Origin: a virus
Direction: 5' to 3' (one strand)
Virus record (IMG/VR): IMGVR_UViG_3300046787_000675
Span: 1 to 64,000 of that record
DNA: 64,000 nucleotides
The position numbers were made by a program, and so were the translations under genes. The notes under the pieces are model-generated. The model saw only the letters and a program-made list of their open reading frames with translations, did not search any database and had not been told where the DNA came from. Every line of letters starts with the position of its first letter. The first letter of the stretch is position 1. Below, piece by piece: positions 44,641 to 49,684 of this stretch.

Positions 44641-44886
44641 TTATTTTCTAATTTGTTGTTTATAATATTGCCATTTCTGGGCTTCCCGGATTTTAAGTTC
44701 TCTCCTGCTGTCTACTTTTTCACTTCCAGGCAGTTCCGGGGCTTTCTTTACGATATTCATCTTCAGGTAGGACTTATGGGCGTGTATAGGGTATTTAAAC
44801 TCTATAAGCCCTGCATGATCCGGGATATCTCCCAGAGATACTAATCCCTCTGGAACACAGAAATAGAAATGCTTTAGTTTAGACTT
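44641..44886 (-). pseudogene. 3' part of an IS607-interrupted gene (resembles C-terminal half of MmcB-like nucleases)
   Basis: KSKLKHFYFCVPEGLV..IPDHAGLI..; joins MSRRKR (46666-46649) in frame if the IS is removed at GG, giving 87 aa. Confidence 0.65.
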
Positions 44887-44900
44887 CCGATCACTTTTTA

Positions 44901-46493
44901 TTAATTGTTATTAACAATGCATGCTCGCATTTCTGCGAACAAGGGCTGATCTGCCAACGCACGTAGGAAAATCCCACGCGCTCCATTTATATCTCGGCAC
45001 ATACTCTGTCCGAGACTCTTGATGGTCTTACGACCACCTAGATTTTGGATAACTTCTCCTGTCCAACTAGCGGTTTTACTTGTGTATGCTTCGCATTGTC
45101 TTATTATTATTTTTCCTGCCTCGTTAGCTTTACTTAAAAGCTTTTGAGAGAACTTGTAGTGGGATAAGGTAAGCATTTGACGTACTGACTTTTTGCGTAG
45201 CTTACGAGCAGCTTTACAAACCATATTACTTACTTCGAAAGGAGGTAGGATTATAACATCAAAGTTATTAACAAGCATAGCTACAGCTTTGTTGTGTAGT
45301 TCGGCTATTAAGTCTTTGATTTTCCAACGCATCCTATCTGCAGCTTTCTTAAGCCTATATCGTTGCTTAGCTGTACATTTAGTTTGTCGACTTATCAAGT
45401 CGTCTAAATAAATACACAATCTTGTTATTCTGCTCATAGCGCCTGAACCTATTTTAAAAACACCTGCAGGAGAGTAGCCTGTTAAGAATGTTCGTACACC
45501 TGGATCAAGAGCTACAATCCTACCTTGGTTTTCGGCAGGTACTGTAGTTACTTGTTCCGGTATACAGACAAACCATCTACCTTGTTGGTAAATAAGTCTG
45601 CTGTCCATAGGGGAATTTGGAATAGCTTCAGAATAGCGCAATACGCCTGACAATCTTTGATAAATACCTTTATCGCTTATCGCGCTCTTAGGGATGTAAC
45701 AAGAGTGTACAGGCTCTTTCTTACTTTTAAATTTAGGTACTTGGGGTACCCCTGTCTGCTTAGTAGTCATACGGCATTTAACAAGGCAAGAGTGCGCTTC
45801 TTTTACAGCTATAGACTTTATTTGATATGGTATTTCTTTCGACCATACAGGAGCGTCTTTGAAAAGAATATTTCTAAGATCCATCCAAGACACTCTTTCT
45901 GCAGGGTTTTTGTTTAACCAATCTAAAGCTAAGTTGTAGAAGAAACGGAAAGAACCTAGCCATTTCTTAAAGGCTATTTTCGTCTCTTTCAACGGATAGA
46001 TTCGTATCTTTCTCGATTTTGTTAGCGTACTTCCCAAATCGTGCGAAGCTGCTGGAGAAGTATTGTGATAATTCATTAACGTTTGTTGTGAGTTCTTCTT
46101 TGGAGCTAAAGCGGTGGTCATTGAGAACCACGATTTCTCCGCCGTTCTTCCTAACCATGGACTCAATGAGGTCAAATCCAAGTCTAACAAGTCGGTCTTT
46201 ACTGGTAACCACAAGCGTGAGCTTATCTCCCTGCATAAGTCGTTCCAGTAAGGCTTGAAGTCCTTTTCTTTTGAAGTTAAGAGCACTTCCGGTGTCTTCG
46301 ATGACTTCAGCGTTTGGGTACAGCTGTCTAAGTTGCGCGGTTTGTCGGACGAGGTCGTCCTTTTGTTCCGGCGAGTGGACTCTGCAGTAAAGGACGATAG
46401 AACTGTCTGCTTGTCCTCGAATGTACGATTTGACATCGTACAATCGCTGACCTGCTTCATTTTTGACTGTTCTAATCTTTCCTTCATCTGCAT
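44901..46493 (-). CDS. tnpB: TnpB, catalytically rearranged (Fanzor2-like/pro-Fanzor type); true start uncertain
   Basis: KIRIYP, ALDPGVRTF, VIILPPF (no canonical Glu), QCEAYTSKT, RDINGARGI. Confidence 0.88.
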   Translation of the reverse strand: MQMKERLEQSKMKQVSDCTMSNRTFEDKQTVLSSFTAESTRRNKRTTSSDKPRNLDSCTQTLKSSKTPEVLLTSKEKDFKPYWNDLCREISSRLWLPVKTDLLDLDLTSLSPWLGRTAEKSWFSMTTALAPKKNSQQTLMNYHNTSPAASHDLGSTLTKSRKIRIYPLKETKIAFKKWLGSFRFFYNLALDWLNKNPAERVSWMDLRNILFKDAPVWSKEIPYQIKSIAVKEAHSCLVKCRMTTKQTGVPQVPKFKSKKEPVHSCYIPKSAISDKGIYQRLSGVLRYSEAIPNSPMDSRLIYQQGRWFVCIPEQVTTVPAENQGRIVALDPGVRTFLTGYSPAGVFKIGSGAMSRITRLCIYLDDLISRQTKCTAKQRYRLKKAADRMRWKIKDLIAELHNKAVAMLVNNFDVIILPPFEVSNMVCKAARKLRKKSVRQMLTLSHYKFSQKLLSKANEAGKIIIRQCEAYTSKTASWTGEVIQNLGGRKTIKSLGQSMCRDINGARGIFLRALADQPLFAEMRACIVNNN

Positions 46494-46557
46494 ACTTCCT
46501 TAATGTGTTAGGATGCATTCCTAATTCTTTACTCGCCTTTCTACTTGGTAGTAACAT
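45967..46557 (-). CDS. tnpA: IS607 serine recombinase TnpA
   Basis: N-terminal HTH (LGMHPNTLRKY), YCRVHS, QKDDLVRQ, EDTGSALNFKRKGL, KDRLVRLG. Confidence 0.93.
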   Translation of the reverse strand: MLLPSRKASKELGMHPNTLRKYADEGKIRTVKNEAGQRLYDVKSYIRGQADSSIVLYCRVHSPEQKDDLVRQTAQLRQLYPNAEVIEDTGSALNFKRKGLQALLERLMQGDKLTLVVTSKDRLVRLGFDLIESMVRKNGGEIVVLNDHRFSSKEELTTNVNELSQYFSSSFARFGKYANKIEKDTNLSVERDENSL

Positions 46558-46637
46558 TATTACCTCCTTTCAATAGGTTACTTAATAGTAACATAGTAAA
46601 TGTTAATTTCAAGTAGTATTTGTTAATAAAAAATCAT

Positions 46638-47300
46638 TTAGTTAAAATCCTCTTCCTGCGGGACATACTTTTTCTTATCGCTGTCGTAGCACATGGTAAA
46701 AGTTATATCGAGAGCTACAGGTATTTTTAGTATAGACACGACTTTGTCTATTACATCATCGTCCAATACAACACATCCCTGATCTTCATAATAGGTCTGG
46801 TGTTTTATAAACATATCCCATTCCGCTCTAGGTACCTTAGGGATAGGGTGGTTTCTATTCCCATAAACACTTTCGTACTCATAAGAGGTCATAAGTCTTG
46901 TATTTAATTTATGCAATCTGCGAATCTCCGGATATGCGCCTACATCTGTATCTAGTGTTAAGATCATACCTTCAGACTTCCAGGTTATACCTATGCGATG
47001 TTTATTTTTTTCCTTACTTCTATTTTTATAGAATACGCTTATTTGATATACGAACTTTTTACCGGATTGGTTTATCTGAGTAGTACCGTCAGTAGGAAAT
47101 ACCTCAAGGGCTTTTGCCAGCTGCTCCCTTGTAGCAGATGCTATATAGGTATTATGTCCGTACCCTCCTGTAGACTCAATACCGGTCTTATCGTAGATAA
47201 GTTTCTCCTCCGTGGCTACGCGTATATCTTCTTTATACTTCTTTTCCAAACGTACCAAGGCTTCTGCGTGTTCCTCGTGTACCTGTTGTATTGTTTTCAT
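46638..47300 (-). CDS. Hypothetical protein; last codons supplied by the IS left end
   Basis: 220 aa; ends EEDFN* now, EEEV* in the reconstructed empty site. Confidence 0.7.
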   Translation of the reverse strand: MKTIQQVHEEHAEALVRLEKKYKEDIRVATEEKLIYDKTGIESTGGYGHNTYIASATREQLAKALEVFPTDGTTQINQSGKKFVYQISVFYKNRSKEKNKHRIGITWKSEGMILTLDTDVGAYPEIRRLHKLNTRLMTSYEYESVYGNRNHPIPKVPRAEWDMFIKHQTYYEDQGCVVLDDDVIDKVVSILKIPVALDITFTMCYDSDKKKYVPQEEDFN

Positions 47301-48036: not shown

Positions 48037-48609
48037 ATGTTTTTAAAAAAGTGGGCTAAACAGCAACAAATAAGCTACTGGACAGCCCTTAGGTGGTTTC
48101 ATTCTGGTAAGTTACCTGTTAAAGCTATCCAAACTGAAACAGGGTCTATTTTAGTAATTGAAGAGTCTTCTGCACCGTTATCTAATTGTGTAGGAGTACA
48201 CCTGTACGCTAGGGTAAGTAGTCACGACCAAAAACAAGATCTCAATAGACAGCTACAGAGGTTGCGTGACTACTGCGCTTCTAGAGGTTTTAATATACTT
48301 AGTGAAACAGCTGAAATTGGTTCAGGGTTAAACTCTGAACGCAAAGGTCTGGCTAAGATTCTTAAAAAAGAAGCTGGGGATATTGTCGTCGAACATAGAG
48401 ATAGACTTGCACGCTTCGGTGTCCCTTACATAGAAGAGGCGCTGTCTGCTAGACATAGAAAACTTGTAGTTATCAATGAGACTGAAAGTTCTCAAGAACT
48501 TGTACAAGACTTTATTGATATTGTCACATGTATGTGTGCTCGAATCTATGGAAAACGATCTGCCTCTAATAAAGCTAAAAAAGCTTTAGCAGCCACTCAA
48601 CAGGATTAA
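48037..48609 (+). CDS. tnpA: IS607 serine recombinase TnpA
   Basis: WAKQQQISYWTALRWF, YARVSSHDQKQDL, EIGSGLN, EHRDRLARFG, CARIYGKR. Confidence 0.95.
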   Translation: MFLKKWAKQQQISYWTALRWFHSGKLPVKAIQTETGSILVIEESSAPLSNCVGVHLYARVSSHDQKQDLNRQLQRLRDYCASRGFNILSETAEIGSGLNSERKGLAKILKKEAGDIVVEHRDRLARFGVPYIEEALSARHRKLVVINETESSQELVQDFIDIVTCMCARIYGKRSASNKAKKALAATQQD

Positions 48610-48610
48610 T

Positions 48611-49684
48611 ATGAAAAGGTCTAGTAAATGCTCTATTAAGTTTACTACTAAGAGTAAACAACACAAGCTTTCTCTTATTTTAGACGAATATGCCCGTGTA
48701 GTAAATTCATTTATAGACCTCTTTTGGACATCCTGCCCAAGTAAGGCTGCCCTTTTAAAACCTGTTGTAGACTCTGTTAATTCTTATTTTTCCGCACGTC
48801 TTAGAAAAGTAGCTGCTCGCGAAGCTATAGATATGGTAGTAGCCATGAAGCAACGAGGCGGGAATAAACCTGTACATACAGGTAAACGTATGTGCCTTTC
48901 CGAAACAATTGCAAACTACAAACCTTCGAAAGCAAAGCATTTCGAAGGTTGGATAGAGTTGCGGTGTATAGGTGCTAAAATAGCTATTGACCTTCCTATA
49001 AAGCTGCACAAACACTTTAATAAGTTACATGCTTCGATGGATTTATGTAAATCCATCGTACTTACGCCTACCTACGCGATGTTCTCTTTTTCTAAAGAAA
49101 TAGAGTACCCTGCGGTTGTGTCTGCACCTCTAGCTATAGACTCCGGAATAAAAGCTCTTGCTTCGTGTTCGGACAACACCCAACTAGGTGCCGATATAGA
49201 AACATACATTAAAAGAGTTAGACGTTGTAAACAGAACTCTAGAGGGCAGCAAACTGCTCGAAGAGCCTTAAAACAACGAATAGACGAAGTAGCTAAACAA
49301 GTTTTACAGAAGGGCGCTGATGTTGTCATCGTAGAAAACTTAAAGAACATAACAAAAAACACTAAAGTCAAACGACGCTTGACTAAAAATATGCGTTGCG
49401 TTCTCGGTACTTGGAACCTGAGATATTGGTTAAGCAGATTAGAACAGCGCTGCGAATCGAACCGTGTTCGATTCGTTAGCGTTCCTGCTTACTACACATC
49501 TCAGAAATGTTCTAAGTGCGGTCACACCGAGAAGAGAAACAGGCAACAAGAAATATTCCGATGCTGTGTCTGTGATTACACAGCTAACGCTGACGTGCAA
49601 GCGTCTATGAATATTTTAGGTCTGTTTCTTGCCGGCACCTACGGTTCCGGCTGCAAAGACAAGTTTGCTATAAAAGTAAACTGA
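48611..49684 (+). CDS. tnpB: TnpB RNA-guided nuclease (compact, 357 aa, intact D-E-D and Zn finger)
   Basis: AIDSG, IVENL, YTSQKCSKC..CCVC..NADVQASMNI. Confidence 0.93.
   Translation: MKRSSKCSIKFTTKSKQHKLSLILDEYARVVNSFIDLFWTSCPSKAALLKPVVDSVNSYFSARLRKVAAREAIDMVVAMKQRGGNKPVHTGKRMCLSETIANYKPSKAKHFEGWIELRCIGAKIAIDLPIKLHKHFNKLHASMDLCKSIVLTPTYAMFSFSKEIEYPAVVSAPLAIDSGIKALASCSDNTQLGADIETYIKRVRRCKQNSRGQQTARRALKQRIDEVAKQVLQKGADVVIVENLKNITKNTKVKRRLTKNMRCVLGTWNLRYWLSRLEQRCESNRVRFVSVPAYYTSQKCSKCGHTEKRNRQQEIFRCCVCDYTANADVQASMNILGLFLAGTYGSGCKDKFAIKVN

Follow-up and report, generated by a model that had tools for sequence, protein, structure and literature searches.

A phage-borne IS607-family pro-Fanzor with tnpA nested in a dual-coding tnpB, and a TnpB N-terminal arm that probably corresponds to the Fanzor2 N-terminal domain

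Here we describe an IS607-family element of about 1.76 kb (44887–46650, minus strand, as are all of its features given below) in a 64,000-nucleotide (nt) stretch of viral DNA, positions 1 to 64,000 of IMG/VR record IMGVR_UViG_3300046787_000675 (the window). We put at roughly 80 % the probability that it is a phage-borne pro-Fanzor element in which the transposase gene tnpA is nested in a dual-coding tnpB, and in which the N-terminal arm that TnpB reads from the overlap is the counterpart of the N-terminal domain (NTD) of Fanzor2. The list of open reading frames (ORFs) and Pfam give tnpA (45967–46557), for a serine recombinase of 196 amino acids (aa) with an N-terminal MerR-type helix–turn–helix (HTH), and, together with comparisons to the PDB, tnpB (44901–46493), for a pro-Fanzor-type RNA-guided nuclease of 530 aa. 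At 160.7 kb, the IMG/VR virus contig is estimated to be 84 % complete. Judging by its genes for a helicase and a large terminase subunit, and by its standing as a virus record, we identify the host as a large, uncultured tailed phage.

The overlap spans 527 nt (45967–46493): tnpB codons 1–176 lie one base downstream (+1) of tnpA codons 22–196, and the whole catalytic part of tnpA (codons 22–196) falls within the first 176 tnpB codons. An earlier note, made from the letters of the window, had remarked that the tnpB frame stays open for these 527 nt into tnpA, and tnpA codon usage does not account for it: 5,000 synonymous-codon shuffles of the window tnpA gave a mean of 5.6 stops in the +1 frame and no stop-free sequence (0/5,000), against 0 stops observed. 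None of 65 genome loci with an intact tnpA has a stop in the +1 frame; shuffles give 3.8 stops per locus and are stop-free in 2 % of cases, and the +2 frame carries 10.8 stops. Of 26 non-redundant loci, 23 have a tnpB frame that remains open up to 110 nt or less from the start of tnpA (null, 0.31). Pairwise identity at tnpA third positions, which are tnpB second positions, is in these 26 loci 0.45 over TnpB residues 1–60, 0.59–0.60 over residues 61–130 and 0.58 over residues 131–176, compared with 0.36–0.38 at tnpB third positions outside the overlap. The constraint is weaker (0.45) in the head of TnpB, a part that several lineages lack, their ORFs starting just before the arm.

Moreover, the arm is retained where tnpA is not. 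Where tnpA has decayed (32 loci), the tnpB ORF has a median length of 523 aa and the arm motif SW[FY] is kept in 32/32; where tnpA is absent, arm and SW[FY] are kept in 6 of 9 loci, and the ORFs, of 449–513 aa, start just ahead of the arm. Loci whose tnpA frame has decayed give alignment scores of 104–134 for the arm and of 47–73, with 3–9 stops, for the former tnpA frame. In a viral set that was not ranked by similarity to the query (about 24 loci with an intact tnpA), the TnpB ORF is always at least 476 aa long including the arm, and the number of arm-less forms is 0. Purifying selection acts on both frames of the overlap throughout a very large family, and the arm is not a mere by-product of tnpA codons.

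The N-terminal arm postulated in the earlier note holds for residues 77–155 (46029–46265), which appear ordered and Fanzor2-like; it does not extend to the first 76 or so residues (46266–46493), which are rich in Ser, Thr and Lys, predicted to be disordered and absent in some lineages. In an AlphaFold2 model built from a 134-sequence alignment (mean predicted local distance difference test score, pLDDT, 79.7; predicted template modelling score, pTM, 0.76), pLDDT per 10-residue block is 32–38 over residues 1–70 and 32–45 over residues 1–80, and reaches 86–92 over residues 81–100 and 88 over residues 121–130. The arm comprises PYWN, a helix (residues 85–93), LWLP, SWFS, a strand (residues 124–129) and a linker; the segments PYWN, RLWLP and KSWFS that the note had read in the overlap all lie within it. 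VIA-align places model residues 79 to 518, as first and last aligned, on residues 53 to 518 of the mimivirus Fanzor2 ApmFz2 (9B0L; 414 residues aligned), and alignments to other TnpB and Cas12f chains start at model residues 151–157, which leaves ApmFz2 as the sole solved chain whose alignment covers the arm. A profile of the family aligns EKSWFS to TNSWYE, ApmFz2 residues 81–86, within the RuvC-R segment (residues 65–91). In ApmFz2, RuvC-R completes the RuvC fold and contacts the guide RNA, and the thumb (residues 109–130) clasps the target DNA (PMC11832414). The note had pointed to a Fanzor2 segment of the form W.P...SW[FY]; its SW[FY] part is borne out by ApmFz2, and W.P was seen in a single Fanzor2, that of a giant-virus bin described below (L139, LLWPTETD). 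With a profile of the arm by itself, 1,454 cluster representatives match at E≤0.001, 852 of them at E≤1e-10, always with the arm near the N-terminus, and 10/10 sampled matches are TnpB-type proteins. On the strength of sequence and model together, we regard the ordered overlap segment (residues ~79–155) as the counterpart of the Fanzor2 NTD, RuvC-R plus thumb, which precedes the WED domain and distinguishes Fanzor2 from all other TnpBs. ApmFz2 (L79; PMC11832414) shares with the window TnpB a rearranged active site, SW[FY] and a disordered head before a structured NTD; it differs in having a C4 zinc finger, a head that is a nuclear localization signal, for which a phage protein would have no use, and a host among viruses of eukaryotes, with identity between the two proteins of about 20 %.

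The remainder of TnpB assigns it to the pro-Fanzors. Pfam recognizes HTH_OrfB_IS605 and Cas12f1-like_TNB, from residue 158 on. The RuvC-I motif is DPG (ALDPGVRTF; D330-P331-G332, 45498–45506), with D330 and G332 invariant in 134 sequences, and the RuvC-III Asp is D501 in RDINGARG (44991–44993, within RD at 44991–44996), again invariant. Coordinates confirm both halves of the rearrangement described in the earlier note: Leu occupies the canonical RuvC-II Glu position in VIILPPF (45237–45257), and an alternative Glu, E468, stands in QCEAYTSKT (45072–45098; Glu codon 45090–45092), is invariant in the 134 sequences, lies six residues before the first zinc-finger Cys position and aligns with the Glu of NEYLTTKT in ApmFz2. 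The triad D330/E468/D501 is complete, and all 14 columns invariant in the 134 relatives are intact in the window protein. DPG at RuvC-I together with a Glu six residues ahead of the zinc finger is the fingerprint of Fanzors, and prokaryotic IS607 TnpBs that bear it have been named pro-Fanzors (Yoon et al., NAR 2023, PMC10711439); they are also termed TnpB2 or RIIr lineages (PMC13565253). By these motifs we class the window TnpB as a pro-Fanzor related to Fanzor2, and not as a Fanzor2 by definition, because its host is a tailed phage and neither a eukaryote nor a virus of eukaryotes. The pro-Fanzors of PMC10711439 resemble it in DPG, alternative Glu and an IS607 recombinase partner, and full-length identity to the proteins of Moorena, Geitlerinema, Nostoc, Microcoleus and the like is 45–50 %; they differ in that they are found in cyanobacteria, whereas the window copy is carried by a phage.

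ApmFz2 is the best solved relative by sequence, profile and fold, in keeping with the description of the protein as a Fanzor2-like rearranged TnpB: phmmer gives it E=6e-19 against 0.03 for the next match, the family profile E=2.7e-38 against 1e-6 to 1e-4 for canonical TnpBs, Foldseek E=5e-20, and VIA-align Z scores of 25.0 and 27.2 for two models. Additionally, a tree of 59 rows, with just one, distant outgroup and a number of long branches, places the window protein inside the family with DPG and the alternative Glu, its nearest neighbours being a Thioploca metagenome-assembled genome and viral contigs. By these scores and within this sample, the protein groups with Fanzor2 and the pro-Fanzors and not with canonical TnpBs.

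Of the alternatives, the one that fares best, and to which we give a small but real chance, is that the insertion is a dead and decaying relic whose transposase is inactive and whose nuclease is disabled by the loss of its zinc finger. Such a reading draws on the position of the catalytic Ser nucleophile of TnpA, which in the window copy is His61 (46375–46377, YCRVHS). A comparison of 94 intact family TnpAs finds Y[CAS]RVS[STR] in 93 and RVHS in this copy only. The change at TnpA codon 61 preserves a Ser in the overlapping tnpB frame. The recombinase activity of TnpA has probably been lost, leaving the element immobile by itself; it would not be autonomous, because TnpA has His at the nucleophile position. 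The reading draws further on the absence of all four zinc ligands and on the single copy of the element in the 160.7-kb record. Against it, neither ORF is truncated or interrupted by a stop, the triad and the 14 invariant columns of TnpB are intact, and the right end of the element fits the family consensus.

The missing finger, moreover, does not point to decay. The earlier note had reported the cysteines as lost (KTASWTG), which is correct, but the loss is a trait of a large clade and not of the phage copy: at the CxxC...CxxC positions of basal relatives the window protein has ASWTG...SLGQSMC (44997–45071), with one unrelated Cys only, and all four ligands are missing in 121 of 134 aligned relatives and retained in 10. 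A crown clade of 45 of the 59 tree rows (Shimodaira–Hasegawa-like approximate likelihood ratio test, SH-aLRT, 98), including the window protein, lacks the four Cys throughout, usually reading SKTVSWTGE, and has many multi-copy members, so that loss of the finger is compatible with spread. The basal lineages, like ApmFz2 and L139, keep the C4 finger that the window TnpB has lost; those in this sample are all viral and include two giant-virus Fanzor2 proteins, a distribution to be taken as a lead, since the pattern used for the genome scan was specific to the finger-less form. We consider the loss, as far as the alignment and tree can tell, to be a single old event in a successful multi-copy clade and not decay of the window copy, because the whole crown clade shares it. 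For editing constructs, it would mean that a zinc finger is dispensable for the function, or at any rate the spread, of a large natural clade.

The tnpA ATG is preceded by a strong Shine–Dalgarno sequence (GAAAGGAGG). TnpB likely initiates at an AGGAAG-ATG of its own within the HTH-coding part of tnpA: AGGAAG is followed by ATGCAGATG (46485–46500; M1 at 46491–46493, M3 at 46485–46487), inside the TnpA HTH sequence LRKYADEG, and the context AGGA[AG]-ATG(CAGATG) is repeated in most of the 26 non-redundant loci. An improbable alternative is that ribosomes starting at the tnpA ATG shift +1 to make a TnpA HTH–TnpB fusion, the open head (residues 1–76) serving that purpose. It would explain why the tnpB frame is open to about 70 nt from the tnpA start even though the head is predicted to be disordered, and a 432-aa database protein (P0142) does join TnpA residues 2–57, with the MerR HTH, to TnpB residues 28–311 in one frame, switching just before the TnpA catalytic motif. 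That protein may be a simple indel mutant, however; a conserved AGGA[AG]-ATG heads the tnpB frame, lineages without a tnpA start codon retain the arm behind their own ATG, and a slippery site was neither searched for nor seen. The weakest alternative, which has very little left in its favour, takes the +1 frame for an accident of tnpA codons, with a TnpB start no earlier than the end of the overlap and arm motifs that mirror those of TnpA; PYWND, WLPVKTD and EKSWFS do lie exactly on TnpA QALLER, VVTSKDRL and GEIVVL, TTG and ATG codons occur at residues 125–168 and Pfam domains begin only at residue 158, but it is largely refuted by the absence of stops from every intact locus where 3.8–5.6 are expected, by the constrained tnpA third positions, by retention of arm and SW[FY] where tnpA is broken or gone, by phage lineages whose ORFs start just before the arm, and by the confident model of the arm with its solved counterpart in ApmFz2.

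We favour the pro-Fanzor reading with a dual-coding tnpB, and the question of how the arm came about leads to the canonical IS607 elements (a second element in the window, ISXfa1, ISFba1). In these, too, the gene for a serine recombinase with an N-terminal HTH precedes tnpB on the same strand, terminal inverted repeats are lacking, the junctions are G-rich and a guide RNA is expected at the right end; unlike the element described here, their tnpB (357–384 aa) starts at the end of tnpA or overlaps it slightly, and the product has the canonical Glu, CxxC...CxxC and no arm, as in the second window element and in ISFba1 (8IAZ), to which the alignment starts at model residue 157. The family has been described as having 'two overlapping ORFs' (PMC3673617; PMC9956272). 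The nested tnpA (Pfam: MerR HTH, residues 7–40; Resolvase, residues 54–185) is an ordinary, ancient and widespread recombinase gene, and its product aligns along the catalytic domain with non-overlapped TnpAs. Most likely, the arm arose by extension of tnpB upstream into the +1 frame of tnpA, before Fanzor2 split off; we prefer this overprinting origin, which the earlier note had raised as a possibility, because the arm has no relatives outside this clade, in contrast to the old and widely shared tnpA.

Overprinted genes in viruses and mobile elements commonly consist of a young frame over an older, conserved gene, the young product being disordered and rich in Ser, Thr and Lys and the synonymous sites of the old gene being constrained. 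Here the new frame differs from the usual case in being an added domain of an existing nuclease and not a separate accessory protein, and the old gene is the partner transposase. A locus in an IMG/VR giant-virus bin (GVMAG-S-1017244-26; L139:2294-4150) has an intact tnpA with the N-terminus of a Fanzor2 in its +1 frame; the Fanzor2 reads PFW, LLWPTETD, SWF and then a lysine-rich linker, DPG, the alternative Glu and a C4 finger. With this nesting the layout is therefore not confined to prokaryotes and phages. The TnpA of the same locus carries a long C-terminal tail rich in Lys and Glu. In a limited sample, the zinc-finger-bearing lineages closest to giant-virus Fanzor2 are all phage-borne. We lean modestly towards the wider proposition that the Fanzor2 NTD was born de novo by overprinting of the partner tnpA in a prokaryotic or phage IS607, that the nesting is ancestral and persists in at least one giant-virus element, and that phages may have carried it towards eukaryotic viruses. 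If true, this would explain, in a concrete way open to testing, where a functional domain of a eukaryotic RNA-guided nuclease came from, as a rare instance of domain birth by overprinting. Changes in the TnpA catalytic domain nearly always alter the TnpB arm, which may help to explain the co-conservation of TnpA with TnpB or Fanzor2, and the activity of editing constructs may depend on the arm and on the choice of the correct start codon. The literature searched on TnpB, Fanzor and IS607 describes at most overlapping IS607 ORFs, with no nested tnpA and no link of TnpB with overprinting; PMC10711439 and its stored supplements do not mention a nested tnpA, an N-terminal arm or a finger-less clade.

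A number of points weigh against this interpretation and its extension to Fanzor2. Arm residues 105–110 and 135–153 are modelled with low confidence, the latter being the counterpart of the thumb, which is strongly basic in ApmFz2 and weakly basic in the window protein, and the structural aligner gives no more than the two outermost aligned positions. Common descent links the loci, and the shuffle tests are then not independent trials; the genome loci were obtained with a pattern for the finger-less form and ranked by similarity to a full-length query, which favours intact long ORFs. The arm motifs sit, as set out above, on the most conserved motifs of TnpA, and part of their conservation is therefore imposed by tnpA. 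The tnpB start codon is our reading of its sequence context, and activity of the finger-less TnpB is presumed. For Fanzor2, nesting is known from L139 and not from the ApmFz2 locus; the REC region of the L139 Fanzor2 is interrupted by one in-frame stop, Pfam gave no match for the ORFs flanking it, and its giant-virus label is the name of the IMG/VR bin.

Considering how such a protein might work, the arm would pack against the RuvC lobe and an RNA pseudoknot or the target DNA, as do RuvC-R and thumb in ApmFz2. TnpB would be loaded with an RNA from the tnpB 3' end and the right end of the element, its guide being copied from the flank, from 44886 downward. By analogy with the TnpBs of IS605 and IS607, it would cut phage genomes without the insertion, beside the G-rich motif of the left junction, and after the cut the element could be restored or spread by recombination during co-infection. 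The presumed omega-RNA scaffold (44887–45116) overlaps the tnpB 3' end and the conserved right end. RNAalifold on a plain MAFFT alignment of the 26 loci yields only 12 pairs, 7 of the 12 with compensatory changes, which lends the scaffold weak support, and Rfam has no credible match on the stretch, its one chance-level hit (18.4 bits against a gathering score of 86) lying outside the element. The presumed guide (AAGTCTAAACTAAAGCATTT, 44867–44886) is positioned from the right-end consensus, which sets the end at 44887 and agrees with the starting point that the earlier note had given; its 16-mer is unique in the 160.7-kb record.

The ends of the element were defined with the help of multi-copy relatives, whose elements measure 1.73–1.78 kb, with the left end 45–75 nt upstream of tnpA and the right end 24–51 nt after the tnpB stop, finishing in ...ATCGG; collapsed repeat contigs of 1,689–1,750 bp and copy-to-copy alignments likewise indicate an element barely longer than the tnpB ORF. 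Across the 26 non-redundant loci the right end lies 9–51 nt past the tnpB stop, with the family consensus AAAAAGTATCGG, and that of the window copy, TAAAAAGTGATCGG, which finishes in ...GATCGG at 44887, agrees with it. At the left junction GG (46649–46650) is followed by ATTTTAAC, similar to the family sequences GGTTAGC and GGCTAAC. As in IS607 elements, there are GG junctions and neither terminal inverted repeats nor a target duplication, and the boundaries agree with those of the multi-copy relatives; by its sequence we assign the element to the phage-borne pro-Fanzor IS607s. The pentamer AGAGG of the left junction (46649–46653) occurs again at 44847–44851, 36 nt past the right end; it was considered as a mark of the right end and rejected, the family consensus setting that end at 44887, and its recurrence is probably coincidental. 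The element lies at the extreme 3' end of a phage gene; excised in silico, it leaves the upstream gene with the C-terminus QEEEV-stop (a hand translation of the junction sequence), which with the element in place reads QEEDFN-stop. An empty site was sought in related phages, and the flanking gene had no relative there.

Nesting of this kind is seen in about 130 loci, drawn from six bacterial phyla, many phages and one giant-virus bin, and is accordingly a trait of a large clade: the earlier note had presented it as a feature of a phage IS607, and it is present in the window copy but not peculiar to it. Of 130 loci, 88 have an intact tnpA, 32 a degraded one and 9 no detectable tnpA, an IS607-type serine recombinase being paired with TnpB in 120; in 88/88 loci of the first set, the TnpA homology found by tblastn covers the first ~175 tnpB codons and lies one base upstream of their frame. 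True tnpA-free copies are L113, L115, L116, L118, L120, L121 and L131. A protein database search returned 1,691 matches, the top 120 being mostly of 500–548 aa, 45–50 % identical at 90–100 % query coverage and seldom from named organisms (Moorena, Geitlerinema), and a scan of one genome per species gave more than 564 loci, mostly in cyanobacteria, the others being from Latescibacteria, Poribacteria, Chromatiaceae, Thioploca/Marithrix, Competibacteraceae and Chloroflexota. The range of pro-Fanzors thus extends beyond cyanobacteria, to many phages and at least five further bacterial phyla. That large phages may carry such elements, as the earlier note had surmised, is supported by 46 IMG/VR loci outside giant-virus bins and, in GenBank, by 20 Vibrio phage records and one Microcoleus phage.

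Annotation of the Vibrio phages F100 and 184E37.1 (L001, L003) and of Microcoleus phage My-WqHQDG (L002) shows one gene, called 'transposase' or 'hypothetical protein'. We rejected the view, suggested by such records, that these homologues are stand-alone genes without tnpA, as tblastn finds tnpA or its remains in the overlapping frame: it is broken in the two Vibrio phages and apparently intact, unannotated and of about 179 aa in the Microcoleus phage. Gene callers that keep the 525-aa ORF and omit the tnpA nested in it, as these phage records show, lead to such elements being misread as stand-alone TnpBs. In a separate protein of 543 aa (P0056) a fragment of a cytidine/dCMP deaminase (PF00383, PF14437) is joined in frame to the TnpB arm at ...KPFWNESC, which probably reflects an insertion into a deaminase gene with loss of the 5' half of the element.

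Two further TnpB-related loci lie near the element. The second IS607 of the window (48037–49684, plus strand) is unrelated, 1.5 kb away and in the opposite orientation; its tnpA (48037–48609) encodes 190 aa with YARVSS, and its tnpB (48611–49684), which begins two bases past the tnpA stop, encodes a canonical TnpB of 357 aa that has CxxC...CxxC and lacks the N-terminal arm. Just outside the window, a degenerate TnpB-like stretch (L005, G000:C1:65474-66727, minus strand) has 22 % identity to the query and 8 in-frame stops.

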